From Heterodontus francisci (Eukaryota), in the NCBI RefSeq assembly GCF_036365525.1, contig NC_090374.1, forward strand, positions 58,085,174 to 58,149,173: a DNA stretch of 64,000 nt, read 5' to 3'. Position numbers and translations under genes: made by a program. Below, one piece after another: positions 7,973 through 58,859 of this stretch. How positions within the stretch are numbered: position 1 is the first letter of the stretch; each line of letters starts with the position of its first letter. The notes under the pieces are model-generated. The model saw nothing but the letters and a program-made list of their open reading frames with translations, ran no database searches and was not told the DNA's origin.

Positions 7973-8826
7973 GCAAGGCCTGGTTATTTCAATGTGCGGT
8001 ACATTAAAATTTTGTATCTAAAGGGGCCAGCTTGTGAGCCGCTTGTGGTACCTTCAAAGTTGCTGTGCGGCCACGCACGCAGCTTAGAGGCATCTTTGAT
8101 GGTAATATCTGCTCCCACAACACCCCTCCTCAGCCCCCTGTTTATTCCTGTAGTGGAGCATGTTAGCGAGACAAGTGTTGACCTATAACAACAATAAGAT
8201 CTGGTTTACATTCATTACTTTTCCAAAGATGCAGCTTTTCAATCAACATTATTTCATAGCCTATTCATATGTTTTCAACGGGAAGTATTTTTAAGTGCCC
8301 AAAGGATCTGAAACTGCAGGAATTACAATTAATTAATGGAGTAAAATGTTTTGTTTTATAGTGAAATATGTAATGAATATCAAATATTGTTTTTATAACA
8401 AACCTTGCAATGCTCCTCTATCTGACATGATGGAATAATCCTTTGTGCTTACGTCATAGCAGGGTTGTAAAGCCTTTTCTTTGCATTTTCCATGCAGCTG
8501 AAGCTTTTTCTTTTTACATACACACTTAAACATTTATCACAAAAATCCTAAAGTTCTTGAAAAAAATGTTCACATTGTTCCTTTAAGAAAAAATTAACAC
8601 TTCACGCTTGACATACTCAGGACTACGACAGAAATATTGTATTAGAAACGTTGCCCTCAGCCAGCAACTGCTCAGACTTGATGGTAAGCTGTGTCTACAA
8701 TCTTTAGATAAGGCATTTAAAGTAGTTGAATTATACATAGGATGGAGCTAAAGGCTGGAGCCTAGTGATGCGAGTCAGGTGCGTCTGTAGACTAACAAAG
8801 CTTTAATTTTCTAGTTTATGACATTA

Positions 8827-11250: not shown

Positions 11251-12053
11251 AATTCCTGATTTACTGTAATAGTCATAAATAAGACAGAAGTACTCAGTTT
11301 ATTTCAAAGCAAACATTTATTTTATTACAAGTAATGGGCTGGAAGGAAGTGTGAATAGAGTGATGAGGCTTGGGTTAAGGCGTGTACTGGGAGCAATGAA
11401 GTGACAGGTGTGGGCTTTTGAGCAGGTTAGAGTGGAGGAAGATGTTTTGGCTTTGTGAAAGGCAGTTGGTATGTGTTAGAGGAGTTGCAGGCACTCTCAG
11501 CCAGTGTGTAATGTGAAGAATTAGTCGTTTGAATGTTGCTTCAAGTGAGTGAAAGGTGATGTCCAGGGTGGGAAGTGGAGAAGGTGAGTGTGCTGACATG
11601 CTACCCTTGCCTGTCCGTGTAAGGTGTTTTTACATTTTACTGCACTGTCGGAAAAACCTGGGTATGAGGAGTTGGGAGCCTGTGCCAGTGTCAGCTTCCT
11701 GCAGGCACCATGACTAATGTTGGTGTCCAGCTTGTTGAAGGGAAGACCCAGGAGTGTGAGGCTCTTCTCTTGTACATCTTGAAGGAGGACTTAAGATCTT
11801 CAGAGAGACTGGTTGCATTTCTTGTACTTGAGGCGGTGCCTGGTGTGTACCTAAGTGGTCATGATGGTGCCAATCTGGACTGTTGCTGTCGGTGACAGAT
11901 GCCATCAAGTGACTTGATGGGAATTGCCAGCAAAACCACTTGTTTGTTGCTTACCTTGCTGTTGGACAGTGTTCTGCTGCTCCTGGACTTCTGTGCTTTT
12001 TAAAGAGTTAGGCCATTATTGCATTGAGGTTTCCTGGCAGAGGAGGGAGGAAT

Positions 12054-12722
12054 TGTTGTGTTTTCTTAACCTCTGTTAGTGACTATGACACCCAAAGGAT
12101 TGACCACTCAAGATGGGATCAGTAACACAATAAAGTGGATTCTTTATTTAAGGATGGTTCTGCATGCAAACACAGGTCTTCACTGTACAGGTACTTTCTT
12201 CAGAGTGCCCTCACACCAGAAATCATATGTGTGTTACATGCCAGCGCTTATACTGATTGCATTATTACATGACCGCATCTCTTAAAGATGTACCACAACA
12301 TTCCCCTTTTTTCAAAAACTGTTATCCTGTTTCTAGATCAGGACATTTGATTAAACCACCTTTACTTTATCATGACTGCTGAGTATACATGTCTCTGTTA
12401 CTGTTTTGTACCATGTATGTTTATCTCCTATTCCTGTTGTTGAATTGTATATAGTTAACTTTTACCTATTTGAGGGGGATATGTTTTTATTTGGAAAAAG
12501 GGCGATCTGTGGTACACCTTTAATGGGCGTGGTCATGTTATAATGCACAGAGCTGTGATGTAATACACGACTTCTGGTGTGAGGGCAGGCTGAAGAAATC
12601 ATACCGGTGTTCGCATGCAGAACCATCCTTAAAGAACCCACATCATTGTGTTACTGATCCCATCTTGAGTGGTCAGTGCCTTGTGTGTAGTAGTCACTAA
12701 CAGAGGTTAAGAAAACACAACA
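12054..12722. mobile_element. Non-coding element made of two inverted LTR-like arms, with a 5-bp TSD
   Basis: TG...CA ends; GGAAT at 12049-53 and 12723-27; arms 12054-12300 (-) and 12506-12722 (+), each abutting a purine tract on its inner side. Confidence 0.8.
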
Positions 12723-13389
12723 GGAATGTCAGTAAATTACTTTGGGTGATAGTGTAAAACAGATGGTTTCGGATTAATTGCTCAGTATACATCTCTCCCA
12801 ATTTTCATTTCTAAAATCGCCCAAAGCCAAAATGCTCTCACCGTGTCTGCACTGAGGTTACATCAGAGCTTCACCAAAAATAATTAAACTAACTTACCCC
12901 AGGAAACTTGTGTGTAACTCCCTCTACTGGTGAGAGGTATAACTTTCCGATGTAACAATGGCATAACTATCATTGAGGAAATTCAGGACCTGTGAATTAT
13001 AAATCTTGCATGCAACGCTATAACGTATGTATAAAAATTCTGCCATAAACATTTTTACGGATCTCTAAAGTTGTTTTTTGCAATGAAAACACTGAAGAAA
13101 TATAGATATATATACATCAATGTCCTAAAACAAAAGAATATGAAAAAATATGTTGTCATAAGCTGTTGATAGTCCCCACATCCCTCTTTCTAAGTTGCAT
13201 TTAGAGACATTTTACTATGTTCCCCAACTGCCAAATGAATTCAAATCTCTGCAATGGCTTAACTAATGTCATTAGGGTCAAAGGCAAAGTATTAGAATGC
13301 TGTACCATTTAGTGTCTTACAATTTGCATTAACTGTACCTACAAACCGTTCGAATTAAGAATTTCCTTTGTATGATTTAAATAATGCAG

Positions 13390-25442: not shown

Positions 25443-28400
25443 TGTTATATATGTATATATTGTTATATTATCTGTAAAGTGTTAAGAACTAAGTAGTTAG
25501 GAACTAGTTGTTATGTGTAAGTGTTCCAGTAGGGGGCCACATTCATGGCTGCACTGGGGAGTCATGTTATATGTAACACAAGAATCAGGTTCTACAGCAC
25601 AGAACATGGTGCTATAATAAACAAGACTGACTCCAGCCTTTTCCAAGTTTTAAAGTGTGATTCCAACATCTGGGAACCAGAAACAACATAAAGATGAAAC
25701 ATGGTGGCAGCAAATGCCTTTGAGTAAACCTACAACATTTTTAAAAGCATCGGATTGAGAAAAATGACCCAAATTAGTGCCAGAGAGACAGAAAAACTGA
25801 GTGACTCATGCGAAAACTCTAAAAGAAAAAGATCAAAATGTCAGCCGGGACAGGAGTGAATGCACTGCTATAGCCCATCATGAATTGGGGAGCTGATGAT
25901 GTCGTAGAGGCATTTGAGAAGTTTGAATAAAAGTGCAATTTGGCATTTAGTAGTTTCTGAAAAAGCACAAGTGAAGAGGAGAGGGTCAGCTATATCCTTC
26001 TCTGGGCTGGAGATAAAGCATTAAATTTATTTAACAGCTGGGACCTAAGCGAAGAGGACATCAGAAACCCAGACAACATTTTTGATTCAGCATCCATCTC
26101 CAGCCAAAATCAAATCATCGGATATACCGATATGAATTTCAAGGTCTCAGACAGGAACTAGGTGAGCCTATTGACAATTATGTAGCAAGATTGAAAAATG
26201 CAGCCAGAAAATGTAAATTTAAGGACACAGTTGAACAGCTGATAGATCGGCTCATTTGGGGTTCTGCACATCCTGAAGTACAGAAAGCTCTAATCAGCAG
26301 GACAAGCTCACAATATCGCAGGCTGTAGTCACTGCCAGAGCACATGAAGCCATGAGCAGACAGATGAAGACTCTGACCTCCCAAATAGCAAGACTTCAGT
26401 TAAGCCAAGAGACAGGCAGCAGGGTCGATGCAGTGAAACAACAACTAAAGAATGTACACCAAACAGAGAGAAATATGGGCAGGAGCTATGGACGACCACA
26501 TGAATTGACAGATAGAAGGAAATGTCCCACATATGGATCAATCTGCAGGACTTGCGGAAAGACCAATCACTGGGAAAAGATGTGCAGAACAAGGCAAGAA
26601 GGTGGTAGACGAGTAATCAGAGCCAGAGTATTAGGGCGAAGGTACAGCAAAAGAAACCAAAGCATCCATACCCTGGGTGATGGGTTTGAGAACATGATAG
26701 ACATAGGAACCATAGAATTGCACGAAATGTCTGGATGTAACAGTTCCCAGAGAAACGAAATACACACAACCATTCAGATCAAGAAGAGGCTGAGAAATAA
26801 GCCCACAACGATAAATCTGAAGGTGAAGATTGATACTGGAGTGCAGAGTAACATCATCCTGCTCAGACTATACCAGCAGATCTGTCCTGAAAATTTGGAG
26901 AAAAATGGTTATCCAAGGGAAGGTGCTCTGAAACCAGACAATGTCATGCTAATAGCATACAGTGGAACTGAGATTTGACAGCTAGGAACAACCCAAATCA
27001 GAGGGACACACAAAGGAAAAGATGTTAACTGTATGTTCTACATCACAGAAACAGATGGTACAGCTATCCTGGGGTTGAGCAGTTGTGAAGAGCTGCAGAT
27101 TATCTCAGTAAACCATGAGGTGAAGGAGGCGACACTGAGGGTTGAAATAGTACACCCATTGAAAAGCGCCCTCCGATAAGCAAAGAAGATCTGGTACAAA
27201 TGTACCCAGAGTGTTTTGGTGAGACGGTTGGATGTTTCGAAGATTTTGCGTATCACGTCACTATTGACCCAGCGATGAAACCAGTGATTCATCCCCCACG
27301 TAAAGTGCCAGTAGAACTAAAAGGAATTCTTGAAAAAGAGCTCTAAGAAATGGAAGAAAAGAAAGTGATCGCCAGAGTCACAGAGCCTACAAATTGGGTA
27401 AATTCCATCGTGGTGAGAGGGAAGTCAAATGGACGGCTGAGAATTTGCCTCGATCCCAAAGATCTTAACCAAGCAATAAAGAGGGATCACTATCTTATTC
27501 CAACATTGGAAGAAATCACACCAGCACTGGCAGGGGCAAAAGTTTTCAGCAAGCTTGATCCCAGAAATGGCGACTGGAATGTGAAGCTAGAAGCAGAATC
27601 TTCACTGTTGACAACATTCAACACACCCTTTGGACGGTACAAATTCCTGCATCTACCCTTTGGCCTCAAGGTGAGCCAGGATGTGTTCCAACAGAAAGTA
27701 GACAAGACATACAGGGGATGCAAATAGCAGACGGCATAGCTGATGATATTCAGATATATGACGCAGATGGAAAAGATCATGACAACCATCTACATGAAGC
27801 CATGGAGTGAACCAGGAAAGCTGGGATTAAGCTAAATGAGACAAATGCGAAGTGAAAGTGACAGAATGCTAGTTCTTCGGAATGGTGTTAAGCCGAGCCC
27901 TGAAAGAATCTCAGCCATCTCGGGGATGGAAGCCCCAAGCGATAAGAGAGAGTTGAGAAGTTTCCTTCATTTGATACAATACATGAACTCCTTTATTCCG
28001 CACATGTCGGAACACACGGTAAACCTGCGGGAGCTGTGAAAGAAGATGTAGAGTACCAGTCACATGACAGGAGTTTCAACAAACTCAAAAAGGTAGTATG
28101 CAAGGAGACAAATCTGTCGTACTACAACAGAAAGAAACCTGTCACTCTACAGGTAGGTGCTTCCACTAAAGAACTGGGAACAGCCCTGGTACAAGAGGGA
28201 AAGCCAATAACATTTTTGTCCAAAGCTCTGACATCAGCTGAGACAAGATATCTCAACATAGAGAGAGAGCTTTTTGCAGTCGTGTATGGATGTGAGAAGT
28301 TCCACACTTATCTCTATGGGAGAAAGTTCACAGTGGAGAGTGCTTATTGTCCACTGGAGGAGATCTACAAGAAAAATCTATGGAAAGCACCAGCAAGACT

Positions 28401-30219
28401 GCAGAGGTTATTCTTGAGGCTTCAGTGTTATGATTTCACTCTGAAATATAAGCCAGGAAGAGAAATGGTGCCAGCAGCCACCCTATCTCTGTTGTCACCA
28501 TGGGAGAAACATGAGATAGAAGATCTAGACATAAAGATTCATCACCTAGTGAACGTAACAGCACCAAAACTGAGTTAAATTAGAGATGAGACCAGCAAAG
28601 ATGAGGAGTTGAAGATGCTATCTCAACAAGTGATCCAGGGATGGCCTGATAGGATACAGCACACACTGCCAACAATATGGCAGTACTGGTCTATCAGAGA
28701 TGACATCTCACTAGGAGATGGTGTTCTGCTGGCCGGATCCAGAATAATCATACCTAAAACAATGCAGGAAGAACTTCCCCAAAGATACACGAAGGCCACA
28801 TGGGAATGGAGAAGTGTAAGCTCAGAGCCAAATCAGCTGTGTACTGGATAGGCATATACAAAGATATTGAAAATATGGCATCTACATGCAATGTATGCCA
28901 GAAGTACAGAAACTCACAACAGAAAGAGGAGATGATAGTTACTGAAGTACCACCCAGACCATGGCATACTGTAGGAGTCGATTTATTCACACATAATCAA
29001 GAATGGTATCTCATAGTCCTAGACTGCTACTCAAAATTCCTAACAATAATCTCAGCAGTACGAGTTCTGTTCACTGAGCAAGGGATTCCTGAAAGGTTAA
29101 TATGTGACAATGGCACCTAATTTACATCCAGAGAATTTAAGCAATTCGCTGACCAGTATGGGATCAACACCATCACCTCATCGCCACACTACCCACCGGA
29201 ACACGGATTTATAGAAAGACACGTCCAGACGGTCAAAAGAACACTTGTGAAATGCCAAGAGACGAAGGGAGACCCTAACCTGGTCTTATTGTCACTCCGA
29301 TCACACCTCTCAAGGCTGACATGAAATCACCTGCAGAGCTGTTAAATGGAAGGAAATACAAGACAACTCTGTCAAGCAAAATACATCCTTCAAATAACCA
29401 GGAAGAAGTGAGACAACAACTCACTGAAGCACAGGTAAGTGGAGAGCAGCACTTCAACAAATATGTTAAATCCCTACCCGAGCTGTTGAAAGGCCAAACT
29501 GTACACGTACAGGATCCAATCATGAAAACCTAGAGCCCAGCAAAGGTTGTTAGTGAAGCTGAGACTCCAAGGTCATATATCATTGAGACTGAAACTGGTA
29601 ACCAAATGAGAAGGAACAGAATCCATATTCGACCTACACCTGAGCTGGAACAACAGAAAAGACCATCAACAACATCGAAAACATCACTATCCAGCGAGAC
29701 AACACTAACAACATCACCAGCAAGTGACACGACATCGCCTGTACAGCGTGCCAACTCACCACTGAGAGCAACAAATGCCAAATCTACAAGATGGAGGCAC
29801 AACATTTTACCACCCAAGCAATACCATGAATAATATTTTTTTAAAAGAATACACACTATAAAAGACTCTAAAAAGGGGTTCAGTTTATTTCCACAAGTCA
29901 AATGATAATTTTTAAAATTTATATTGACAGTTATATTGATAGAGGCATGTTTTAAAGAAAGAGGTATGCTATATTTGTTATACTATCTGTAAAGTGTTAG
30001 GAACTAAGTAGCTAGGAACTAGTTGTTATGTGTAAGTGTTCCAGTTGGGGCCACATTCATGGCTGCACTGGGGAGTCATGTTATATGTAACACAAGAATC
30101 AAGTTCCACCGGACAGAACATGGTGCTATAATAAACAAGATTGACTCCAGCCTTTTCCAAGTTTTAAAGTGTGATTCTTTCCAACATCTGGGAACCAGAA
30201 ACAACATGAAGATGAAACA
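25443..30219 (+). mobile_element. Full-length, decayed Ty3/Gypsy LTR retrotransposon (Mag-like)
   Basis: LTRs at 25443-25701 and 29967-30219 (TG...CA); TSD CTGTC; PBS TGGTGGCAGC at 25702 (tRNA-Leu-like); PPT aaagaaagagg. Gag knuckle CRTCGKTNHWEKMC, protease DTG, RT (LRICLDPKDLN, ADD), RNase H (IERELFAVVYGCEKFH), integrase (PWHTVGVDLF, DNG). Many stops and frameshifts. Confidence 0.96.
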
Positions 30220-30309
30220 CTGTCCCACAAACATTTTGCTGACTCTGTAAACTCCACAGAGGCAGCACTGGTAGGCACTTGAAGGGATCAGGATCTTTTA
30301 TTCCTTTAA

Positions 30310-34633: not shown

Positions 34634-37555
34634 TCAGGAACGCTAGGGTAAAGAGGTGACCTAAAACAAATTGATCCCAAGAATAATGAGAAAAGGACAA
34701 GAATGGCAACTCAACATCCCTGAATATAAAGTTTTCAGGCAGGATAGAAAGGGAGATAAAAAAGGAGGGGGTGTAGCATTATTAGTTAAGGAATCAATAA
34801 CAGCTTTGAGAAGGGATGATATGCAAAATGAATCATCAAATGAGGCTATATGGGTGGAGATCAGAAATAAAAAAGGGGCAGCCACACTACTAGGAGTGTA
34901 CTATAGACCCCCAAATAGTGAGTGGGAGATAGAGGGACAAACACGTAGGCAAATTGCTGAGTGCAAAAACTATAGGGCAATAATAGTTGGGGATTTCAAC
35001 TACCCCATTATCAACTAGGATACAAACAGTGTGAGGGGCATGGAGAGGACAAAATTCTTGAACTGCATTCAAGAGAACTTATTTAGCCAGCACGTAACAA
35101 GCCCAATGAGAGGGGGCGCAATTCGAGATTTAGTCTTCGGTAATGAAGTTGGACAAGTGGAGTAAGTAACAGTGGGTGATCATTTTGGAGATAGTGACCA
35201 TAATACAGTAAGTTTTAACATAATCATGGAAAAGAACAAAGATAAAACAGGAGTTAAACTTCTAAACTGGGGAAGGCAAATTTTAAGAGACTGAGAGGTG
35301 ACCTGGCAAAAGTGGACTGGATACAGCTACTTGAAGGAAAATCAGTGGCAAACAAGTGGGAGGCATTCAAAAGCGAGATCCTACAGGCACAGTGTAGGCA
35401 TGTCCCCACTAAGATAAAGGGTGGTACTGCCAAACCTAGAGGCCCCTGGTTATCTAGGAGCTTACAGGGTAAGTTAAAGTAGAAAAAGAAAGCTTATGAT
35501 GATCACAAAAATCTTAACACTTTAGAAAGCCTAGAGGAGTACAGAAAGTGCAGGGTGAAGTTAAAAAGGAAATTAGAAAAGCAAAGAGAGGGCATGAAGA
35601 ATTATTGGCAGGTAAAATCAAGGGAAACCCAAAGATGTTTTATCAGTACATTAAGAGCAAGAGGATAACTAAGGAAAAGATAGGGCCTATCAGAGATGTA
35701 CAAGGGAACTTATGCATGGGTGCAGATAATGTGGGCAAGGTTCTTAATGAGTTTTTTTGCCTCTGTCTTCACAAAGGAGAGGGTTGATATAGACGTTGTA
35801 GTTAGAGAAGAGGAGTGTGAAATATTAGATACGATAAGCATAATGAGAGACGAAGTACTAGAGGGTCTGACATCCTTGAAAGTGAATAAGTTGCCAGGGC
35901 CGGATGGCATCCCAGGTTGTTAAAGGAAGCCAGGGAAGAAATAATGGTTGCACTGAGGATCATCTTCAAATCCTCACTAGATATAGGAGAGGTACCAGAC
36001 GATTGGAGGTCTGCGAACGTTGTACCATTGTTTAAAAAGGGTGTGAGGGATAGGCCAAATAATTATAGGCCGGTCAGTCTGACCTCGGTGGTGGATAAAT
36101 TGTTAGAATCTATTCTGAGGGACAGGAAAAACTGCCACTTAGAAAGGCATGGATTCATCAGGGATAGTCAGCATGGATTTGTTAATGGAAGGTCATGTCT
36201 TACTAACTTAATTGAGTTTTTTGAAGAAGTAACAAGAAGGATTGATGAGGGTAGTGCAGTAGATGTGGTCTGCATGGACTTTAGTAAGGCACTTGACAAG
36301 GCCCCGCATGGCAGACTGGTCAGTATAATGAAAGCCCATGGGATACAGGAGAATGTGGCAGGTTGGATCCAGAATTGGCTCAGTGACATGAAACAAAGGG
36401 TAGTAGTCGATGGATGTTTTTGTGAATGGAAAGCTGTTTCCACTGGCGTTCCACAGGGTTCAGTCCCCATCCACCACCACCCTCCTCCGCCTGGCTGAAC
36501 TTGTTCTCACATTGAACAACTTCTCCTTCAACTCCACGCACTTCCTTCAAGTAAAAGGTGTCGCTATGGGTACCCGCATGGGTCCTAGTTATGCCTGTCT
36601 TTTTGTAGGATATGTTGAGCATCCTTTGTTCCAGTCCTAGTCAGGCCCCCTCCCCCAACTCTTTTTCCGGTACATTGATGACTGTATCGGTGCCGTTTCC
36701 TGCTCCGGCCCCGAACTGGAAAACTTTATCAACTTTGCTTCCAATTTCCACCCTTCTCTCACCTTTACATGGTCCATCTCTGACACTTCCCTTCCCTTCC
36801 TCGACTTCTCTGTCTCCATCTCTGGGGATAGGTTGTCTACTAATATCCATTATAAGCCCACCGACTCCCACAGCTACCTCGACTACACTTCTTCACACCT
36901 TACCTCCTGTAAGGACTCCATTCCATTCTCCCAGTTTCGCGTCTCCGACGCATCTGCTCTGATGATGCTACCTTCCATGACGGTGCTTCTGATATGACCT
37001 CCTTTTTCCTCAACCGAGGTTTTCCCCCCACTGTGGTTGACAGGGCCCTCAACCGTGTCCGGCCCATTCCCCGCACCTCTACCCTCACCCCTTCCCCTCC
37101 CTCCCAGAACCGTGACAGGGTTCCCCTTGTCCTCACTTTTCACCCCATCAGCCTCCATATCCAAAGGATCATCCTCCGCCATTTCCGCCACCTCCAGCGT
37201 GATGCCACTACCAGTCGCATCTTCCCCTCCCTTCCCCTGTCAGCAGTCCGAAGGGATCGTTCCCTCCGCGACACCCTGGTCCACTCCTCCATTACCCCCA
37301 CCACCTCGTCCCCGTCCCAGGGCACCTTCACCTGCAATCGCAGGAGGTGTAATACCTGCCCATTTACCTCCTCTCTCCTCACTATCCCAGGCCCCAAACA
37401 CTCCTTTCAGGTGAAGCAGCGATTTACTTGTACTTCTTTCAATGTAGTATACTGTATTCGCTGCTCACAGTGTGGTCTCCTCTACATTGGGGAGACCAAG
37501 CGCAGACTGGGTGACCGCTTTGCGGAACATCTCCGCTCAGTCCGCAAGCAGGACC

Positions 37556-40080
37556 TCCAAATAGTTCCAGAGATGTAGAGGAAAGGATAGCGAAGATGAT
37601 TCTCGACAGGGGCGAGAGTAACAGGGTAGTTGTTATGGGGGACTTTAACTTTCCAAATATCGACTGGAAATACTATAGTTCGAGTACTTCAGATGGGTCA
37701 GTTTTTGTCCAGTGTGTGCAGGAGGGTTTTCTGACACAGTATGTAGACAGGCCAACCAGGGGCGATGCCACATTGGATTTGGTACTGGGTAATGAACCCG
37801 GCCAGGTGTTAGATTTAGATGTAGGTGAGCACTTTGGTGATAGTGATCACAATTCGGTTAGGTTTATCTTAGCGATGGGCAGGGACAGGTATATACCGCT
37901 GGGCAAAAATTATAGCTGGGGGAAAGGAAATTATGATGCGATTAGGCAAGATTTAGGATGCGTAGGATGGAGAAGGAAACTGCAGGGGATGGGAACAATC
38001 GAAATGTGGAGCTTATTCAAGGAGCAGCTACTGTGTGTCCTTGATAAGTATGTACCTGTCAGGCAGGGAGGAAGTTGTCGAGCGAGGGAGCCATGGTTTA
38101 CTAAAGAAGTTGAAGCGCTTATCAAGAGGAAGAAGAAGGCTTATGTTAGGATGAGACGTGAAGGCTCAGTTAGGGCGCTTGAGAGTTACAAGCTAGCCAG
38201 GAAGGATCTAAAGGGAGAGCTAAGAAGAGCAAGGAGAGGACACGAGAAGTCATTGGCGGATAGGATCAGGGAAAACCCTAAGGCTTTCTATAGGTATATC
38301 AGGAATAAAAGAATGACTAGAGTTAGATTAGGGCCAATCAAGGATAGTAGTGGGAAGTTGTGTGTGGAATCAGAGGAGGTAGGGGAAGTGTTAAATGAAT
38401 ATTTTGCGTCAGTATTTACAGTAGAGAAAGAAAATGTTGTCGAGGAGAATACTGAGGTTCAGGCTACTAGGCTAGATGGGATTGAGGTTCACAAGGAGGA
38501 GGTGTTAGCAATTTTGGAAAGTGTGTAAATAGATAAGTCCCCTGGGCCAGATGGGATTTATCCTAGGATTCTCTGGGAAGCTAGGGAGGAGATTGCAGAG
38601 CCTTTGTCCTTGATATTTATGTCATCATTGTCAACAGGAATAGTGCCGGAAGACTGGAGGATAGCAAATGTTGTCCCCTTGTTCAAGAAGGGGAGTAGAG
38701 ACAGCCCTGGTAATTATAGACCTGTGAGCCTTACTTCGGTTGTGGGTAAAATGTTGGAAAAGGTTATAAGAGACAGGATTTATAATCATCTTGAAAAGAA
38801 TAAGTTCATTAGCGATAGTCAGCACGGTTTTGTGAAGGGTAGGTCATGCCTCACAAACCTTATTGAGTTTTTCGAGAAGGTGACCAAACAGGTGGATGAG
38901 GGTAAAGCAGTGGATGTGGTGTATATGGATTTCAGTAAGGCATTTGATAAGGTTCCCCACGGTAGGCTATTGCAGAAAATACGGAAGTATGGGGTTGAAG
39001 GTGATTTAGAGCTTTGGATCAGAAATTGGCTAGCTGAAAGAAGACAGAGGGTGTTGGTTGATGGCAAATGTTCATCCTGGAGTTTGGTTACTAGTGGTGT
39101 ACCGCAAGGATCTGTTTTGGGGCCACTGCTGTTTGTCATTTTTATAAATGACCTGGAAGAGGGTGTAGAAGGGTGGGTTAGTAAATTTGCGGATGACACG
39201 AAGGTCGGTGGAGTTGTGGATAGTGCCGAAGGATGTTGTAGGGTACAGAGGGACATAGATAGGCTGCAGAGCTGGGCTGAGAGATGGCAAATGGAGTTTA
39301 ATGCGGAAAAGTGCGAGGTGATTCACTTTGGAAGGAGTAACAGCAATGCAGAGTACTGGGCTAATGGGAAGATTCTTGGTAGTGTAGATGAACAGAGAGA
39401 TCTTGGTGTCCAGGTGCATAAATTCCTGAAGGTTGCTACCCAGGTTAATAGGGCTGTTAAGAAGGCATATGGTGTGTTAGCTTTTATTAGTAGGGGGATC
39501 GAGTTTCGGAGCCACGAGGTCATGCTGCAGCTGTACAAAACTCTGGTGAGACCGCACCTGGAGTATTGCGTGCAGTTCTGGTCACCGCATTATAGGAAGG
39601 ATGTGGAAGCTATGGAAAGGGTGCAGAGGAGATTTACTTGGATGTTGCCTGGTATGGAGGGAAGGTCTTACGAGGAAAGGCTGAGGGACTTGAGGTTGTT
39701 TTCGTTGGAGAGAAGGAGGAGGAGAGGTGACTTAATAGAGACATATAAGATAATCAGAGGGTTAGATAGGGTGGATAGTGAGAGTCTTTTTCCTCGGATG
39801 GTGATGGCAAACACGAGGGGACATAGCTTTAAGTTGAGGGGTGATAGATATAGGACAGATGTCAGAGGTAGTTTCTTTACTCAGAGAGTAGTAGGGGCGT
39901 GGAACGCCCTGCCTGCAACAGTAGTAGACTCGCCAACTTTAAGGGCATTTAAGTGGTCATTGGACAGACATATGGATGAAAATGGAATAGTGTAGGTCAG
40001 ATGGTTTCACAGGTCGGCGCAACATCGAGGGCCGAAGGGCCTGTACTGCGCTGTAATGTTCTAATTCTAATTCTAATTCT
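37556..40080 (+). mobile_element. Young CR1 LINE, 5'-truncated, ORF2 nearly intact
   Basis: ORFs 37596-38528 and 38604-39995 are in the same frame, separated by one TAA; TSD AGGACC; tail (TTCTAA)n. Confidence 0.96.
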
Positions 40081-40614
40081 AGGACCCTGAGCTTGCCATT
40101 TCAATACTCCCCCCTCCTCTCATGCTCACATCTCTGTCCTGGGATTGCTGCAATGTTCCAGTGAACATCAACGCAAGCTCGAGGAACAGCATCTGATCTA
40201 CTGATTAGGCACACTACAGCCTGCCGGACTGAACATTGAGTTCAATAATTTCAGAGCATGACAGCCCCCCATTTTACTTTCATTTTTAGTTATTTTTTCT
40301 TCCTTTTTTTACATTCTTTTTTACATTTTTTACAATCTTTTTTTTGCATTTATTTCATTTCATCTTAGTTTGTTCAGTTTGCTTACCCACTGTTTTTCTT
40401 CAGGTTTGCACTTGCTGCTGTTCAATATTCAGTGTATTAACACCTAATCTGTACTAATGCTTTGTCTTTCAACACACCATTAACATATTGTTTGCCTTTG
40501 CTCCGTGACGTTTTGTTCAGCTATGTGGCCTGGTCCAATCTGGACCTCCTTTGTTATCTCTTGCCCCACCCCCACCTCACTTGCTTATAACCTGTGACTT
40601 TTCTAATATTTGTC

Positions 40615-40651
40615 AGTTCCGATGAACGGTCACTGACCCGAAACGTTAACT
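40615..40651 (+). ncRNA. Minimal type I hammerhead ribozyme motif with a mutated core
   Basis: AGTT-CCGATGA-A-CGGTC-act-GACCC-GAAA-CG-TT-AACT in the Penelope 3' end; CUGA is changed to CCGA. Confidence 0.65.
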
Positions 40652-41824
40652 CTGCTTCTCTTTTCACAGATGCTGCCAGACCTGCTGAGTGGTTCCAGCA
40701 TTTCTTGTTTTTATTACCACAGGGTTCAGTGTTGGGTCCCTTGCTGTTTGTGGTATATATTAATGATTTGGACTTAAATGTGGGAGGCATGATTGGGAAA
40801 TTTGCTGATGACACAAAAATTGGCTGTGTAGTTGCTAATGAAGAGGATAGCGTAGACTCCAGAAAGATATCAGTGGTTTGGTTGAATGCGTGGAAAAGTG
40901 GCAAATGGAATTCAATCCAGATTAGTAATGCATTTGGGGAGGGCAAATAAAGCGAGGGAATACACAGTAAATGGGGGGATATTGAGAAGGGTAGAAGAAG
41001 TGAGAGACCTCGAAGTGCATGTCCACAGGTCCCTGAAGGTGGCAGGACAGGTAGATAGAGTGGTGAAGAAAGCATATGGAATGCTTTCCTTTATTGACCA
41101 AGGTGTAGAATTCAAAAGCAAGGATGTAATACTGGAACTGTATAAAATGCTGGTTCGGCCACAGTTGGGAGTATTGCATACACTTCTGGTCACCACATTA
41201 CAGAAAGAACATAATTGCTCGGATGAGAGTACAGAAGAGATTTACAAGAATGGTGCCAGGACTTGAAAGTTGCAGCTATGAGGAAAAATTGGATAAGCTA
41301 CGGTTGTTTTCCTTAGAACAGTGGAGGCTGAGGGGTGACTTAATTGAGGTGTACAAAATTATGAGGAGTCTAGATAGAGTAAACAGGAAGGACCTGTTTC
41401 CCCCTAGCAGAGAGGTCAATTACCAGGGAGCACAGATTTAAGGTGATTGGTAGAAGGATTAGAGGGGACATGAGGAAAAACTTTTTCACCCAGAGGGTGG
41501 TGGGTGTCTGGAATTCACTGCCAGGAACAGTGGTGGAGGCAGAAACCCTCAATTCTTTTAAAAGACATGCACCTGAAGTGCTATAACCGGCAAGGCTATG
41601 GACCAGGTGCTGGAAGATGGGCTTAGATTGGGCAGCTAGTTTTTTTGGCAGGCAAGGACATGACGGGCTGAATGGCCTACTTCTGTCTGTAATTTTTCTA
41701 TGGTTCTATGGTTTAATTTATGCAGTTTGGATTTTTGTTTATGTATCTACATTACCTTCCTTGCACCTAAATAGGGTATAAATAGATAAATAGATGTGTG
41801 GGAATATAAGTCTGGAATTCGGGT

Positions 41825-42224
41825 ATAAAAACAGAAAGTTCTGGAAAAATTCAGGAGGTCTGGCAGCATCTGTGGAGAGAGAAACAGAGTTAATAGGCTG
41901 GATTTTACCATAGGCAGACGGGAATTCGTCACCTACGCAAAAGTCGGTGGCGAGCCCACTTCCGCCTCGCCTGGGGATCCGTCCCATATTTCACGAATTC
42001 CCGGGCTTTAATTGTCCCGAGGTGGGACTTCCACCCACTTGAGGGAGGAGGTCCCGCCTCAGTGAGCTGCCGGCCAATCAGCTCTTAGTCCCAGCAGCGC
42101 CACCAGGTGCAGCGTAAAATTCAGCCCAATGTTTAAGGTCTGTGACCTTTCATCAGAACCTTTCATCTGTTTTTATTTCTGTTTTTATTTCAGATTTCCG
42201 GCATCCGCGGTATTTTGATTTTAT
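41825..42224. mobile_element. Inverted pair of Penelope termini with a 14-bp TSD
   Basis: TCTGGAATTC(G/A)GGT at 41811-24 and 42225-38; a minus copy is followed by a plus-strand tail remnant. Confidence 0.75.
41895..42127. mobile_element. Short Harbinger-type MITE, TSD AAT
   Basis: TIRs aggctggattttac / gtaaaattcagccc; AAT on both flanks. Confidence 0.85.
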
Positions 42225-42676
42225 TCTGGAATTCAGGTGTTTGTTGTGAAAGAAAGCTGATAAATGAATCAATTAGCGCTGCCTTAAATGCCCCAGTTGT
42301 CATCTTGTGTCCCACCGTACCGTTTGCATTTCACTCCTCAATTATTCAGTTCTTTGAAGAAATAACTGCTATGTCAAACTTGCCATTAAATTGAGAGCTG
42401 TATAAAAAGAGAACTGCGGTAAAGTAAGAGAAGTAATTTAAATTAGAAAAGGAAAACAAACAGAAATATTAAAAGATTGAGAAAGAGGCTTGTTAAAAGA
42501 AGGGAAAAATAGCAAAGAGTTGGTATCGTGCTTCATTATTAAGGACCTTTAGGATGAGATTTTAACTCATTCAAAATCTATTCACTCATACAGAGTTAAA
42601 ATCGGACCCTTCCAGTCAGTTTTTGTTGCTGATTTAACAACCCAGGTTTTTTTCAGGTTCTGTTCAGTTTTTGACT

Positions 42677-43660
42677 GGGAATTTCCTCGGAGCTGCTCCC
42701 GCTCTGCTCCAGTCCACTGCTGTAATTTCTTCAGTGGAAACCCCGTTTGTGAGTATACTTAGTGGGCTGAATTTTATCAACGCGCAATGGTGCGCTGTGA
42801 AGTCGGCGGCCTTCTGACATGGAAGTGCCGCCACGCAGTCCCTGCAATATTACGCACGGGCCTCATTTAAATGGAGAGGGCAGAGTGGCTGCCCCCACTA
42901 TGTCATCGGGGGTGGCCGCCACGGCAACGGCATCCAGTGCCACTGTGCATGCACCGGCGCCATTTTAAAAGGACTTCAAGCCCTTCATGAGAGATATAAA
43001 TATTTAAAGGTGCCGTTGTGATAAAAAAGTCAATAAAAGTTTAATTTAAGTTTGAATCCCCTCTCCCACCCCCCACCCCCATTAAGTCCTCAATACATAA
43101 GTTGACCTAACCCCCCCAAAAAAACACTTTTTGAAATTCCGAACTTCCCCCCCCACCACCACCCCCATGATCTTCAGTATCTTTGACCCTCAACCCCCTC
43201 CCACCATCCCCACAACCAATAGGAATAATTTTCCCCGTTCCCCCCCTCCCGCCGCTCTGATAATTTTATTCCTTCCCCCCTCCCCACCAGTGTCTCGCCT
43301 CGGAACTCTAACTTCCGAAGGCGCGTGAGTTGTGACCGGTTGGCTGTAAAATCGGTGTGGGACGGCCGGCGGCAGCAGCTAAGTTTATTTGCATGTTAAT
43401 TTATCTAATTTCAGTATTTTAATGAAGGCCCCGCCGCTTGGCGGTGGTGGGGGGGCCACATCAAGGTCTCGCCGCCACTGCTAATGTCCAGCGGGCCTTC
43501 TCAGCACCGTGGGTTGTGGCGACCGCTCTCACGAGCATTTTATGGGCCTCCCCGCCACAAGCTACGGCATTGAGGGGCTGATAAAATTCAGCCCAGCGTT
43601 TCTGCTGCCTGCCCAGTGAAGTTAGAGTGGAGGAGCGGGAATAGCTCTGAGGAAATTCTC
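42677..43660. mobile_element. Short palindromic MITE hosting the 42764-43594 element
   Basis: gaatttcctcggagctgctcccgctc ... gagcgggaatagctctgaggaaattc. Confidence 0.6.
42764..43594. mobile_element. Harbinger-type MITE
   Basis: Perfect 16-bp TIR GGGCTGAATTTTATCA / TGATAAAATTCAGCCC; TSD AGT/AGC. Confidence 0.88.
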
Positions 43661-43989
43661 AGCCTTTATTTTTAGCGTCAAATACCAGGAGAAGAAATGT
43701 AGATGCAGAAATCTGGTGAATTTAGAGTAAGTAAAATCACTTCACTTACACTACCAAAAAAACAAGCAAGAGACCAACAAAAAGGTCCAGTTACAGTAAA
43801 CAACAATCTTCAATTATTTATACAGTTCACAGACACCACTGTTATGAGCCTCAGTGACACTTCCAAAAGTTCTGGCAAGCGTCTGCTCACAGAAGTTGCA
43901 TCTAACTATGTTTGCCCAGGTTTATTCACCCGAAATCTTGAAACATTCTGGAAACATTCTCTCATTATCAGCTAAGCTGGATGAAACTG

Positions 43990-45017
43990 AATGGAGGGAT
44001 GTCACTAGTGGTGTTCCGCAGGGATCAGTGCTGGGACCTTTGCTGTTTGTATTATATATAAATGATTTGGAGGAAAATGTAGCTGGTCTGATTAGTAAGT
44101 TTGCGGACGACACAAAGATTGGTGGAGTTGCGGACAGTGTTGAGGATTGTCAGAGGATACCGCAGGATATAGATCGGTTGGAGACTTGGGCGGAGAAATG
44201 GCAGATGGAGTTTAATCCGGACAAATGTGAGGTAATGCATTTTGGAAGGTCTAATGCAGGTGGGAAGTATACAGGAAATGGCAGAGCCCTTAGGAGTATT
44301 GACAGGCAGAGAGATCTGGGCGTACAGGTCCACAGGTCACTGAAAGTGGCAACGCAGGTGGATAAGGTAGTCAAGAAGGCATACAGCATGCTTGCCTTCA
44401 TCGGTCGGGGCATAGAGTATAAAAATTGGCAAGTCATGCTGCAGCTGTACAGAACCTTAGTTAGACCACACTTAGAATATTGCGTGCAATTCTGGTCACC
44501 ACACTACCAGAAGGATGTGGAGGCTTTGGAGAGGGTACAGAAGAGGTTTACCAGGATGTTGCCTGGTCTGGAGGGCATTAGCTATGAGGAGAGGTTGGAT
44601 AAACACGGATTGTTTTCACTGGAACGACAGAGGTGGAGGGGCGACATGATAGAGGTTTACAAAGTTATGAGCGGCATGGACAGAGTGGCTAGTCAGAAGC
44701 TTTTTCCTAGGGTGGAAGAGTCAGTTACTAGGGGACATAGGTTTAAGGTGAGAGGGGCAAAGTTTAGAGGGGACGTGCGAGGCAAGTTCTTTACACAGAG
44801 GGTACTGAGTGCCTGGAACTTGCTGCCAGGGGAGGTGGTGGAAGCAGGTACGATAGCGACGTTTAAGAGGCATCTTGACAAATACATGAATAGGATGGGA
44901 ATAGAGGGATACGGACCCCGGAAGTGCAGAAGGTTTTAGTTTAGGCAGGCATCATGATCGGCGTGGGCTTGGAGGGCCGAATGGCCTGTTCCTGTGCTGT
45001 ACTGTTCTTTGTTCTTT
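43990..45017 (+). mobile_element. Young CR1 LINE 3' fragment
   Basis: Open frame from WRDVTSGVPQGSVLGP through FADD to the stop at 44939, then the 3' UTR and tail. Confidence 0.96.
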
Positions 45018-52705: not shown

Positions 52706-55700
52706 CCTTTCACCCCGAGAATTATAGAGAAGGTTCAGGTGGAGGGAGAAGTATTAGTTCTGGTGACTCCAAACCAGCCAAAAGAGTCTGATTCTCAGAA
52801 CTGCTGAAACAAACTGTTATACAACAACTAGGGCCTAGAAATTTGATCACGCCATGCCTGTTGTTTGGGTGCTAAATGGGCACCTAAGTCTCCAGTATGG
52901 CAAGAGAAAGCACATGATAATTTCAAGCTGGAAGCGCACTGACAACCATATTACATCGGCCTTCTCTGTAGTCATGCACAGCAGAAGCCAGAACTATTTA
53001 AAGTAATGAATAACATATTCATTTTAGAGTCCTGCACTTCTTGCAGAACCCTTTTCTTATTTTGATATGCTCTGGGGCCTTGACATCTAGTTATGCCAAT
53101 GTTAAACTGTGAGAGAAAAGGATGGCTGAAAGTGGGCACAAGGTCTTTTTCCAAGTCCTAATGCCTACTAAACCCCACTTACACTATAAAGTTTGACACA
53201 TTATTAGAGTGAAATTGAAGTAGTGCAAAATGGACAATAACAAATTGGCTTCAATGGAATAGAAAATCACGAGGCTGTAAAACGGGCTGCCAAGTCGTTT
53301 TCGTCTGTTTTGCATTGCCTCTGATGACCAATCTGGTACAGATTGTATTCCAGACTGGACTGTAGGGACTAAATCGCTCTGAACTCTGTGAAATAGAACA
53401 CAAGTAAAGTAGCATCGCTCTGCCACAAAAGCAGAAGATACTGCAAAAATACAGCATTCTGTCATCCTCAGTAAAGAGAAAAGGCAAGTTCATATTTTTG
53501 GTGATAACCCATAATCAGAACGGTCAGTTTGGCAAGTTCACTTGTCTGTCACACTGCACCTTTTACATTGATGTGACTACATTGACACAGAAAGTGCCCA
53601 TTAATTGGTCATTATAGAATAAAAATGCTCCATCCAGCAGTTCCTGATCTCAAAAATAATGTCAGGAGAAGGAACTAGTTTCACCAGGGATTAAAAAATG
53701 CATTTTAATTTTAATTTTTGATACCTGCACTGATTTCAAATTGGCTGACTGATAATATTCTATGTAAATTATACATTTTTTCCCAGCCTTACCATATTTG
53801 CAGTCTCTTTGCCTTATCCGATTAAATGACTACAAATATAAGAGATAGAGCAAGGTGGTGTCTATCCTGCATTAAAACCCTCAAGGGATTTTCTTTTTCT
53901 CTCAAACGCTAGCCAAATCTTTGACTGAATCAAATTAATGAGAGGCGCTGTTGGTTTGTTTGAATAGGAGTTTGACAGCCACTTTACAGTGGGTACTCAA
54001 AATCCACAGCAGAATATTGTAATTTCCTGAAATTTTTTAGGGCAAATATGTCAGATCTCCTCTGTGAGCGTGGAAATATATTTGACAATTTGACAATACC
54101 TTGAGGCGCTAGTATACTCTCAGCCTTCCTCATTGCTGTGATGCAATCAGATTATAAAGGAGCTAAGAATTGATAAAACTATTGTGGTAATAACTGAATG
54201 TAATGATGGGATTGATTTTGATGACGCCCATTACATGAGAATGGTCTTACAAACAGCCATAGAAACAAATAATATCCAGTAAACTGAAAATTTGCATTAA
54301 TCTTACGAGCTACAAAGCTTGCAGTTTTTAAAACATTTTCCTTGTTCACAGAGACCAGCATACTAAGTGACTTTTCTATTAGTTATTATTTGTATGATTT
54401 TTAAGAACTCATTAAGAAACGTATGTAAACATCTCCCTCATCGCATCTCTGGAGATAGGCCTAGCAGTATTTTTGGGGAAGTGCATGTAAAACATTTGAA
54501 ATGAGGTTAACACAGCCTCTGCCATGTTTCTTGCCATTTTTCTTCTTTGAATGCCAGCTGCCAAGGCTGCCTTTTAAGGGTTGGCATGCAAGGATCAATT
54601 GTTAATGAATTATTAATAATCTTAAGAGTTACAAAAGTCCCTGCGTAGGAACCGAGCATATGCAATAGTCAGCTGACTAGAAGTCAATGGGTTTCAATAC
54701 TTCAGGCCACAGCTAGAATACTGTGTACAGTTCTGGTCACCACATTACAGGAAGAATGTGATCGCATTGAAAAGGGTTCAGAGGAGATGCTATTGCCAGG
54801 AATGGGGAATATTAACTCTGAAGAAAGATTGGATATGCTGAGGTTGTTTTCTTTGGAACAGGCCAGTCAGTTCAGTCCAATCTCAGTGGTGGGCAAATTA
54901 TTGGAATCAATTCTGAGACACAGGATAAGCTGTCACTTAGAAAGGCATGGATTTGTTAAGGGAAGATCGTGTCTGACCAACTTGATTGAATTTCTTGAGG
55001 AAGTAACAAGGAGGATTGATGAGGGTAGTTTAGTTGATGTGGTTTACATGGATTTTGACAAGTTCCCACGTGGCAGACTGCTTAAAAAAAGGGCCATGGG
55101 ATCCAGGGGAATGTAGCAAGCTGGATACAAAATTGGCTCAATGGCAGGAAACAAAGGGTAATCTCCGACACTTCCCTTCCCTTCCTTGACTTCTCTGTCT
55201 CCATCTCTGGGGATAGGCTGTCTACTAATATTCATTTTAAGCCCACGAACTCCCACAACTACCTCGACTATACTTCTTCACACCCTGCCTCCTGTAAGGA
55301 CTCCATTCCATTCTCCCAGTTTCTCTGTCTCTGATGCATCTGCTCTGATGATGCAACCTTCCACAGCAGCGCATCTGACATGTCTTCCTTTTTCCTCAAC
55401 TGAGGATTCCCCCCCACTGTGGTTGACAGGGCCCTCAACCATGTCCGGCCCATTTCCCACACTTCTGCCCTCACCCTGTCCCCTCCCTCCCAGAACCACG
55501 ACAGGGTTCCCCTCGTCCTCACTTACCACCATCCTCCACATCCAAAGGATCATCCTCCGCCATTTCCGCCACCTCCAGCGGATGCCACCACCAAACGCAT
55601 CTTCCCCTCCCCTCCCCTGTTAGCATTCCGAAGGGATCGTTCCCTCCACGCCACCTGGTCCACTCCTCCATTACCCACGACACTTCGTCTGCCTTCCTAT

Positions 55701-55712
55701 GGCACCTTCCCA

Positions 55713-56478
55713 TGCCATTTTGGTCGGAAGAATAGAAAGGCAAATTATTATCTAAATGGAGAGAAACTTCAGAGTGCTTCGAGCAGAGGGATCTGGGTGT
55801 CCTCGTGCATGAATCGCAGAAAAGTAATATTCATGTGCAGCAGGTAATATGGAAGGTAAATGGAATTTTGGCATTTATTGCTAAAGGAATAGAGTATAAA
55901 AGTAGGGAAGTGTTGCTGCAACTGTACAAGGCATTAGTGAGACCGCACCTGGAGTATTGCATACAATTTTGGTCCCCTTACTTGAGTAGGTTCACTAGAT
56001 TGATTCCAGAGATGAGGGGTTTGTCTTATGAAGAGAGATTGAGCAGTTTAGGCCTTTACTCTCTAGAGTTTAGAAGAATGAGAGGAGATTTAATTGAGGT
56101 ATATAAGATGATTAAGGGGATTGACAAAGTAGACATAGGGAGGATGTTTCCTCTTGTGGGGCAATCTAGAACGAGAGGTCATAGTTTTAGGATAAGGGGT
56201 AGCAGATTTAAAACAGAGATGAGGAGAAATTACTTCTCTCAAAGGGTCGTGAGTCTGTGGAATTCACTATCCCAGAGTGCGGGTGGATGCCGGGACATCG
56301 AGTAAATTTAAGGAGGAGATAAGACAGATTTTTAATTAGTAAAGGGTTGAAGGGTTATGGAGAACGGGCAGGAAAGTGGAGTTGAGGCCGAGATGAGATC
56401 AGCCATGATCGTATTGAATGGCAGAGCAGGCTCGAGGGGCTGAATTGCCTACTCCTGCTCCTAGTTCTTATGGTCTTC
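55713..56478 (+). mobile_element. CR1 3' fragment nested in Penelope
   Basis: LYKALVRPHLEYCIQFWSP...; tail ttcttatggtctt; the Penelope sequence resumes at caggaggtgtaatacc. Confidence 0.9.
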
Positions 56479-57127
56479 ATCACAGGAGGTGTAATACCTG
56501 CCCTTTTACCTCCTTTCTCCTCACTATCCAAGGCTCCAAACACTCCTTTCAGGTGAAGCAGTGATTTACTTATACTTCTTTCAATTTGGGATATTGTATT
56601 TGCTGCTCACAATGTGGTCTCCTCTACATTGGGGAGACCAAATGCAGATTGGGTGACCGCTTTGCGGAACACCTCCAGTCAGTCCGAAAGCATGACCCCA
56701 AGCTTCTTGTTCTTTGCCATTTCAACACTGCCCCCTGCTCTCATGCCAACACTTCTGTCTTTGGCCTGCTCCAGGGTTCCAGTGAACATCAGTGCAAGCT
56801 CGTGGAGTAGCACCTGATCTTTCGATTAGGCACTCTACAGCCTTGCAGACTGAACTTTGAGTTCAATAACTTCAGAGCCTGACTGGCTTTTTTTAACCAT
56901 GTGCCTGCTTTTCATGTAGTCAGAGTTGCTCATTATTCTGCAATTAACACTTTCTCTGGACTAATGCTTTGTCTTTCACCACAAGCATTAACACGCTCTT
57001 TGCCTTTGTCCCAGGACAGCTTTGTTATTTAATCTCCCTCTGCCCTATCACACACCTTCCCCTTTGTTCTCTCCCCCACCCCCTCCCCTTCAATTGCTTA
57101 AAACCTAATTCTTTACCAATCTTTGCC

Positions 57128-57164
57128 AGTTCTGATGAAAGGTCACAGACCTGAAACGTTAACT
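57128..57164 (+). ncRNA. Minimal type I hammerhead ribozyme motif with an intact core
   Basis: AGTT-CTGATGA-A-AGGTC-aca-GACCT-GAAA-CG-TT-AACT: stem I, conserved core, stem II, 1-bp stem III with palindromic ACGT, and a GUU triplet at 57158-60. Confidence 0.75.
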
Positions 57165-58859
57165 TTGCTTCTCTCTCCACAGATGCTGCCAGACCTGCTG
57201 AGTATTTCCAGCACTTTTTGTTTTTATAACAAAGGGTAATTGTTGACGGGTGTTTTTGCGACTGGAAGGCTGTTTCCAGTGGGGTTCCACAGGGTTCAGT
57301 ACTGGGCCCCCTGCGTTTTGTGGTATATATTAACGATTTGGACCTAAATGTAGGGGGAATGATCAAGACATTTGCAGACGACACAAAAATTGACCACATT
57401 GTTAATAGTGAGGAGGATAGCTGCAGACTGCAGGAAGATATCAATGGACCGGCCAGGTGGGCAGAAAAGTGGCAAATGGAATTTAACCCAGAGAAGTGTG
57501 AGATGATGCATTTGAGGAAGTCAAACAAGTCAAAGGAATACACAATAAATGGAAGGATACTGAGAGGTGTAGAGGAAATAAGGAACCTTGGAGTGTATGA
57601 ACACAGATCCCTGAAGGTAACAGGACAGGTCGATAAAGTGGTTAAGAAGGCATATGGAATCCTTTCCTTTATTAGCCGAGGTAAGAGCTGGAATTATATA
57701 AAACATTAGTTAAACCACAACTTGAGTACTGTGTACAGTTCTGGTCACCTCATTACAGAAAGGATGTAATCACACTAGGGAGGGTACAGAGGAGACTTAC
57801 AAGGATGTTGCCAGAACTGGAAAAATGCAGCTATGAGGAAAGATTGGATAGGCTGGAGTTGTTCTCCTTGGAACAGAGAAGGCTGAGGGGAGATTTGATT
57901 GAAATGTACAAAATTGTGAGGGGCCTGGATAGAGTGGATGGAAAGGGCCTATTTACCTTAGCAGAGGGGTCAGTGACAAGGGGGCATCGATTTAAAGTGA
58001 TTGGTAAAATGATTAGAGGAGAGATGAGTAAAACTTTTTTCAACCAGAGGGTGGTGGGGGTCTGGAACTTGTTGCCTGAAAGGGTGGTAGAGGCTGAAAG
58101 CCTCATTTCATTTAAAAGGTACCTGGATGTGCACCTGAAGTGCCGTAACCTGCAGGGCTACGGACCAAATGCTGGAAAGTGGTATTGGACCGGGTGGCTT
58201 TTCTTTTCGGCCGGCACAGACACAATGGACCAAGTGGCCACTTTCTGTGCCATACACTATCTATGATTCAATGACCTATTTACCTTAGCAGAGAGATCAG
58301 TAACCAGGGGACATAGATTTAAAGTAATTGGTAGAAGAAATAGAGGGGAGTTGAGGAGATATTATTCACACAGAGGGTGGTGGGGATCTGGAACTCACTG
58401 CCTGAAAGAGTTGTAGGGGCAGAAAGCCTCGTCACATTTAAAAATGCTTGACTATGCACTTAAAGGGCTGAATTTGCGCTGTTGTTTAAAACATGTCCAG
58501 TGACGTGGAGGGACAGAGAATTGCAGCTGAGTCGTCCGCCATGAAATATGACATTGTTCTGTAGTTTTCCGATTTTGTCAGAGGTGGGGGCATACCATGG
58601 CGGCATTGATGCCCCAACGTGACGGGAAAGTAATTTAAATCAATGAAATGCTATTTGAATTTAAATGTAATTATTTCCAATGTAATGACTGGAACGTGAT
58701 TTTGTAGATGGTGTGCGGCACTCTTGTGCCTTCAGCTTTGCGATCATTTAAAGCTGGCAGCACCGAGGCAAAAGGTCTCAATGCCGTGACGGGGAGGTAT
58801 CTTGACCATTGCAGCATAGGGGAAGTGGGGGATTCTGCAGCCATTGCTGCTCTGCTGAT

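Follow-up and report, generated by a model that had tools for sequence, protein, structure and literature searches.

What kind of event leaves two long terminal repeats (LTRs) of one family facing away from each other within a single short insertion? The question is raised by a 669-bp element, beginning with TGTTGTG and ending with CACAACA, in the window analysed here (the whole 64-kb stretch of shark DNA). Our analysis indicates that this element works like an aberrant insertion made by an integrase and that it is probably a one-off scar. With a probability of roughly one half, it is a one-off (or very rare) defective, mis-primed cDNA with two U5 ends, inserted by the integrase of an abundant LTR family.

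The element is an insertion derived from an LTR retroelement, with TG...CA ends and a target-site duplication (TSD) in the 4–6-bp range. An earlier note on this DNA had described a perfect 5-bp duplication, GGAAT, together with these ends, and both were found. Two random 5-mers from the 64-kb window are equal with a probability of 0.0013, which counts against an accidental GGAAT pair. As seen when the window was compared to itself by BLAST, the arms form an inverted repeat (E = 4e-52) in which 187 of 217 aligned columns are identical (86.2%), with 5 gaps totalling 30 nt; the arm-to-arm divergence is thus 13.8%. Positions of all features are given in Table 1.

Table 1. Parts of the 669-bp element, numbered by position in the window.
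Feature	Position	Strand	Basis
Left copy of the 5-bp target-site duplication, GGAAT	12049-12053	+	Sequence match to right copy
Left LTR, 247 nt, U5 end outward	12054-12300	-	Inverted-repeat BLAST and LTR signals
Signals of the left LTR	TATAA 12252-12248; AATAAA 12148-12143	-	
Left polypurine tract	12301..12313 (read 12313-12301)	-	Adjoins inner TG of left LTR
Putative junction, 7-nt inverted microhomology to 12490-12496	12310-12316	.	6/7 letters; putative role
Spacer, AT-rich, non-coding, 179 nt	12314-12492	+	Composition, ORF scan, read contigs
Right polypurine tract	12493-12505	+	T-rich run just before
Right LTR, 217 nt, U5 end outward; polyadenylation signal lost, inner TG degraded	12506-12722	+	
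Right copy of the 5-bp target-site duplication, GGAAT	12723-12727	+	

Each arm has the parts of an LTR, namely its own inverted repeat, a TATA-like box, a polyadenylation signal and an upstream polypurine tract, and this set is complete on the left and degraded on the right. The left arm has termini of its own (TGTTGTG...CACAACA, an inverted repeat of 8 out of 9 letters) and makes up an entire short LTR on the minus strand: the tract is followed by the TGTTGTGG start, TATAA at internal position 49, AATAAA at 153 and the CA end at 247. These termini, the minus-strand AATAAA and a tract on the inner side of each arm are as the earlier note had them. Its account of the right arm as a diverged plus-strand copy stands, with an amendment at the inner end, which is degraded and reads TCTGTGG at 12506, with the first TG only at 12508. 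AATAAA is missing from the right arm through a 4-nt gap. The two outer ends of the element are both U5 ends, and each adjoins the TSD.

Between the tracts lies a spacer with a GC content of 31%, and the earlier description of about 180 bp free of an open reading frame and a primer-binding site was borne out: stop-free stretches do not exceed 43 codons, and neither LTR end is followed by TGG. No inverted self-similarity was detected within the spacer (142 of 300 shuffles score equally high), and the spacer folded as DNA together with both tracts gives no special hairpin (z = -0.91). No integrase-like transposase is encoded within the element. BLAST found no other copy of the arms, LTRs or spacer elsewhere in the 64-kb window. 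A second tract-like word, GAGGGGGATA, followed by TGTT, occurs at 12470-12487, 20 nt upstream of the right tract; it resembles Copia-type tracts and may be left over from an earlier LTR boundary.

The surroundings are animal-type DNA dense in repeats. Among 24 long frames scanned, 8 match reverse transcriptase or RNase H families and 2 match endonuclease families (APE-like and GIY-YIG); no tRNA and 0 Rfam matches were found in the 64-kb window. Some of the window's repeats may be shark or ray SINE/LINE tails. A decayed Gypsy-type element at 25461-30219 has LTRs at 25461-25701 and 29976-30219 that are 95.8% identical, and an RNase H domain at 27946-28575. Its LTRs are unrelated to the arms of our element (no BLAST match), and a search with its interior found no further related piece in the window. 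The 5-mer CTGTC occurs at 30220 and just before 25443, and the true 5' end of the Gypsy element may lie 18 nt further left, in a TA-rich stretch. A cluster of LINE-type fragments occupies 35890-45017 and 54649-58443 (endonuclease at 37515-38525, reverse transcriptase at 38529-39992), and a Penelope-like piece bearing GIY-YIG at 36913-37575 has relatives at 55161-56701.

Closer to the element, the flanks at 11841-11990 and 12743-12988 are low-copy repeats, their summed depth being about 6-fold and up to 19-fold that of single-copy DNA. One contig joins 11961 to 12858 in order (28-nt side), a weak hint that an older repeat may be interrupted here. A six-frame Pfam scan of both flanks found no family in any of the 12 frames and thus gives the interrupted repeat no name. 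A stop-free frame at about 8600-8682 ends at GTAAG, a splice-donor-like site; this frame is possibly a host exon, and the element could then lie in an intron.

We used reads to place the element among its relatives. Four public runs with the same species label (X1, X5, X8 and X9) were matched to window positions 11800-13000 at 80% likeness. The RNA type of X5 is a guess by program, X8 consists of raw reads of another sample (69 matched), and X9 is a restriction-site run whose 1 read is uninformative. The results below cover the joints, loose ends, pieces and variant rows listed (15 of 33, 17 of 304, 16 of 921 and 40 of 271, respectively). Contigs with 0–1 differences to the element (records 1, 2, 7 and 8) have a depth of 9.3–11.6, equal to that of the unique flanks, showing that there is no near-identical second copy in that sample. 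The components are repeated many times. Summed contig depth is 2600–2800 for each R/U5 core, 500–740 for the spacer and about 120 for U3, with rough ratios to single-copy depth of 260–280 per core and about 50–74 for the spacer; none of these values is a copy number. The raw reads of X8 show the same depth pattern (cores about 14.5 and 12 vs 7.5 for the spacer), and the LTR core at 12101-12148 is repeated in DNA-type and RNA-type runs alike. Four contigs from other loci (records 3–6) cover nearly the whole spacer with 10–15.5% differences, which makes the spacer a single repeated unit, as opposed to two halves.

The two edges of this unit differ. On the right, 6 of the 15 joints listed (33 were found) tie 12461-12506 to the core of an LTR; together with records 3, 6 and 15, they show that relatives carry the arm sequence as a 3' LTR after this spacer. 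On the left, no joint ends at 12290-12330 among the same 15 of 33. The last position of the relatives' spacer matches is 12310, 12310 and 12313 for three X1 contigs, with 12322 for a fourth; in X5 it is 12313 and 12316, and in X8 it is 12310. Four X8 reads, which may come from one locus, agree fully left of 12310 and have neither a purine tract nor an LTR start there. Record 3 agrees with the window for 40 nt of the right LTR, and its 93 nt left of 12310 are unlike the left LTR; records 3 and 4 reach just 93 and 102 nt leftward, short of the conserved core. In record 15 (X5, RNA-type), 20 nt of spacer are followed by the LTR core, and no inverted arm is listed for the roughly 1 kb that lies upstream. 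The orientation of the records was deduced from record 11 and its 186-nt loose end. It should also be noted that relatives whose U3 has diverged are likewise clipped inside the right tract (12494-12506), so clipping at 12310-12313 is by itself no proof that relatives lack the left tract. Bin means put the depth immediately left of 12310 anywhere between 47 and 245, depending on what is assumed.

Since the right edge joins an LTR and the left edge does not among the joints listed, the left tract and LTR are probably the added part. These joints make it probable that the spacer represents the 3' untranslated end belonging to an ordinary, abundant LTR family, to which the left tract and LTR were probably joined at the 7-nt microhomology 12310-12316. 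We infer the direct-LTR form of this parent family; no 5' LTR, primer site or coding region of it was seen.

Several further observations concern the family and the searches. In X5, two deep contigs of 3016 and 1570 nt (depth 90 and 50) carry the LTR core (12101-12148, 12630-12677) with a different U3; the 3016-nt contig begins near the LTR start and runs about 2.8 kb beyond. The two contigs possibly represent a transcribed family member. An adapter origin of the loose end of the four X8 reads was rejected on the grounds of orientation and position. No RNA data set was listed as containing the exact element, which speaks neither for nor against its transcription. A 30-mer pattern gave 0 matches in metagenome contigs and a pattern scan of viral contigs gave 0 matches. 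A 20-mer match at 1374-1393 of metagenome contig L001 is due to chance, as only those 20 letters agree.

The two similar words at the putative junction are TTTGAAA (minus strand, 12316-12310) and TTTGGAA (plus strand, 12490-12496). Within the spacer, no inverted match to 12490-12496 is better than the one at 12316-12317 (6/7). This test is partly circular because four of the positions also begin the left tract, and the microhomology argument holds only insofar as the X8 reads make 12310-12316 family interior.

Read on the minus strand of the window, the element consists of a minus-sense LTR, its tract and about 180 nt of upstream sequence, then a plus-sense tract and LTR. This order fits a nascent minus strand that turned into a plus strand at the complement of the tract. 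In the mechanism that we propose, the minus strand would have stalled about 190 nt past the tract, and its 3' end, TTTGAAA, would have annealed to the complement of the T-run and tract start on a minus strand, either its own (a fold-back) or that of the second packaged RNA. Extension would then run as plus strand to the U5 end of the partner. If two strands took part and the second was extended in turn, a linear duplex with two ordinary U5 ends would have formed in the particle, and small U3 differences between the arms would be permitted. Integrase would have inserted this two-U5 duplex, and the copy would have decayed afterwards. With no primer site, no open reading frame and outward promoters, the product could not be copied further by the normal cycle. 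The idea that two 3' ends, each a tract plus an LTR, were fused back to back within one integrase-type duplication had been put forward from the letters, and our results support it.

Ty1 integrase is reported to insert any TG...CA-ended DNA with a 5-bp duplication, and composite Ty1 elements are attributed to mis-priming and strand switching at microhomologies (PMC2939329). According to PMC3790719, substrates consisting of U5 ends alone suffice for concerted integration in vitro by several retroviral integrases. The Ty1 composites described in PMC2939329 share with our element an aberrant DNA with TG...CA ends, a 5-bp duplication and junctions at microhomologies; they differ in that they are experimental, come from yeast and carry foreign DNA, while the shark element has one LTR family, two U5 ends and an old insertion.

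The arms also bear on the age of the event. The earlier note had observed that they are more diverged than the LTRs of the nearby Gypsy element, which is correct (86.2% vs 95.8% identity), and had argued from this that the asymmetry may be older than the insertion. That argument is not upheld. The arm divergence is indistinguishable from that of this spacer against 4 other copies (10–15.5%; Fisher p 0.25–1.0), and because it matches the copy-to-copy divergence, an old asymmetry is not required. The element is instead older than the nearby Gypsy element, with its pair of LTRs 95.8% identical. By computation, a 5-bp TSD at this divergence stays matched about half the time. Among the variant rows listed (40 of 271), 18 fall in the arms or tracts: at 10 of these sites (6 left, 4 right) the letter of the relatives stands in the partner arm, at 7 both arms carry the window letter, and at 1 there is a gap. 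The letters common to both arms at these 7 of 18 listed sites are absent from 29–87% of the read depth; such common minority letters indicate that the arms are close sister copies that decayed separately.

Changes are unevenly spread along the arms. The inner halves differ more than the outer (21/109 vs 9/108, p = 0.03), and the outermost 32 columns are identical (shuffle p = 0.0055). This inward gradient of divergence means that some U3 difference may predate the insertion. The identical outer 32 columns and the more diverged inner half are not predicted by pure self fold-back; the gradient could stem from a pair of packaged RNAs that differed slightly, from gene conversion or from constraint acting on the ends. 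The transition ratio of the arm changes is low (14/16). It was considered as a sign of old asymmetry and rejected, as neither the Gypsy pair (p = 0.28) nor the relatives (p = 0.17) show a different ratio.

The priming step is the part of the mis-primed cDNA reading that we infer, and rearrangement after insertion would give an identical sequence. An ordinary insertion, or two head-to-head insertions, may have been rearranged later; we consider this unlikely. In one version, a replication template switch would swap the 5' LTR and interior for an inverted tract and 3' LTR, using the terminal inverted repeat of the LTR on the left, so that the TSD is kept, and the 7-nt microhomology in the interior. 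Both microhomologies needed are present, and the read evidence for a one-off junction fits such an event equally well, but two rare events would have to be coordinated, and the simpler course, a flip of the 5' LTR, would bring no purine tract. A guppy endogenous retrovirus (ERV) with an inverted 5' LTR, possibly from recombination, has been reported (PMC5210030). In the other version, a single site would have received two elements head to head, and the resulting palindrome would have lost its centre between two TTTGAAA-like words. Inverted tandems of LTR elements by double insertion are known in Drosophila, where PMC5932611 describes two Rover elements head to head within common outer target copies. 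However, the Drosophila site is palindromic (ATATAT; PMC5932611) and GGAAT is not; here, nearly all of both elements is missing and there is no central target copy. The window contains no remnant of the LTR or spacer outside the element, and no other piece related to the Gypsy interior, which speaks against either version. Two HIV proviruses with inversions (PMC9278108) and rearranged, partial MERV-L insertions with host deletions (PMC6466679) are distant parallels; the HIV proviruses are not described as having a structure like that of this element.

It is also doubtful that the element belongs to a genuine family whose inverted arms derive from LTRs and which is mobilised as DNA by an integrase-like transposase. 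Such a family could consist of this short element in low copy, which is improbable, or of a longer element from which this copy is an internal-deletion derivative, which is more improbable still. A mobilised family, by polypurine-tract priming at both ends or as an integrase-driven MITE, had been the earlier note's suggestion; it has no support so far, as the exact element has single-copy depth and the left LTR junction is missing in the listed relatives. Replication from two tracts is without support because both promoters point outward and tract primers would copy the LTRs only, as follows from the established mechanism and our extension of it.

The perfect TSD with two integrase-type ends, the identical outer 32 columns with divergence increasing inward, and the repeated spacer are all compatible with a family of inverted-arm elements. 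In X8 the cores together have about 3.5 times the depth of the spacer, not far from 2:1, and a longer inverted-arm element would also yield relatives that differ left of 12310. Bao et al. 2010 propose that the terminal inverted repeats of Ginger1 come from two oppositely oriented LTRs (PMC2836005). Against such a family, the left junction has no second copy among the rows listed, the exact path is single-copy, and no transposase is linked to it. The arms retain a promoter, a polyadenylation signal, an inner att end and a tract, with U3 variable as in ordinary LTR families. Metazoan Ginger elements make 4-bp TSDs (PMC2836005). No family with two tracts and inverted LTRs was found in the open-access literature by title or abstract start. 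That a vertebrate family has two LTR 3' ends with tracts as its terminal inverted repeats and is moved by integrase, with the 669-bp copy as a short member, appears rather doubtful.

Ginger-type elements are among the nearest described systems. As given in PMC2836005, Ginger1, Ginger2 and TDD elements have TGTNR ends and long inverted arms, and the arms are 260 bp long in TDD-4 and 297 bp in TDD-5, with a 5-bp TSD. The element is not a Ginger1, whose TSD is 4-bp CCGG or CCGT (PMC2836005) vs 5-bp GGAAT here. Ginger2/TDD elements have a 4-bp TSD in RTATAY sites in animals and a 5-bp TSD in Dictyostelium TDD-4/5 (PMC2836005); the ends of our element fit this group, while its TSD length fits only the Dictyostelium elements and its GGAAT site is not AT-rich. 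It further differs from Ginger1 and Ginger2 in having no transposase and no second copy listed, and in arms that retain LTR transcription signals and tracts.

Other named classes were compared in the same way. The element is like an ordinary LTR retrotransposon or ERV in its LTR layout, a tract adjoining TG, the 5-bp TSD, and a variable U3 with conserved R/U5, and it differs in its inverted LTRs, two tracts, missing primer site and missing coding region. Gypsy, BEL, Copia and some ERVs have such ends. It is not a TRIM or LARD, as its LTRs are inverted instead of direct and a primer-binding site is lacking. DIRS1-like elements, which have inverted terminal repeats, are not known to have a TSD or TG...CA integrase ends; both are present here, so the element does not match them.

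Two further explanations are very improbable. Two independent, opposite insertions with a deletion between them and a chance match of the outer 5-mers would suit an abundant family in a window dense in repeats, and rare matches get picked when many windows are scanned, but the chance of the 5-mer match, the minority variants common to both arms and, weakly, the contig spanning the interrupted repeat (28-nt side) argue against them. An ordinary non-autonomous DNA transposon with long terminal inverted repeats and an accidental likeness to LTRs would account for the TG...CA ends and inverted arms, and a tract-like 16-mer with up to 3 mismatches occurs about once per window by chance, but here the order and spacing of an LTR are kept by the whole set of inner terminal repeat, tract, T-run, TATAA and AATAAA, and relatives have spacer-tract-LTR joints with variable U3.

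If the element is a one-off, mis-primed cDNA, it is a clean fossil of a reverse-transcription error, which on its own changes no textbook. It suggests that integrase can insert short two-U5 DNA in the germ line, and a two-U5 insertion is the raw material required by the hypothesis that leads from LTRs to Ginger elements (PMC2836005). Annotation programs may label such scars MITEs. A family with inverted arms, if true, would be a living example of the step from LTR retrotransposon to DNA transposon proposed for the origin of Ginger1. If repeated inverted-arm copies with distinct TSDs were found, the retrotransposon origin of integrase-based DNA transposons would become directly testable.
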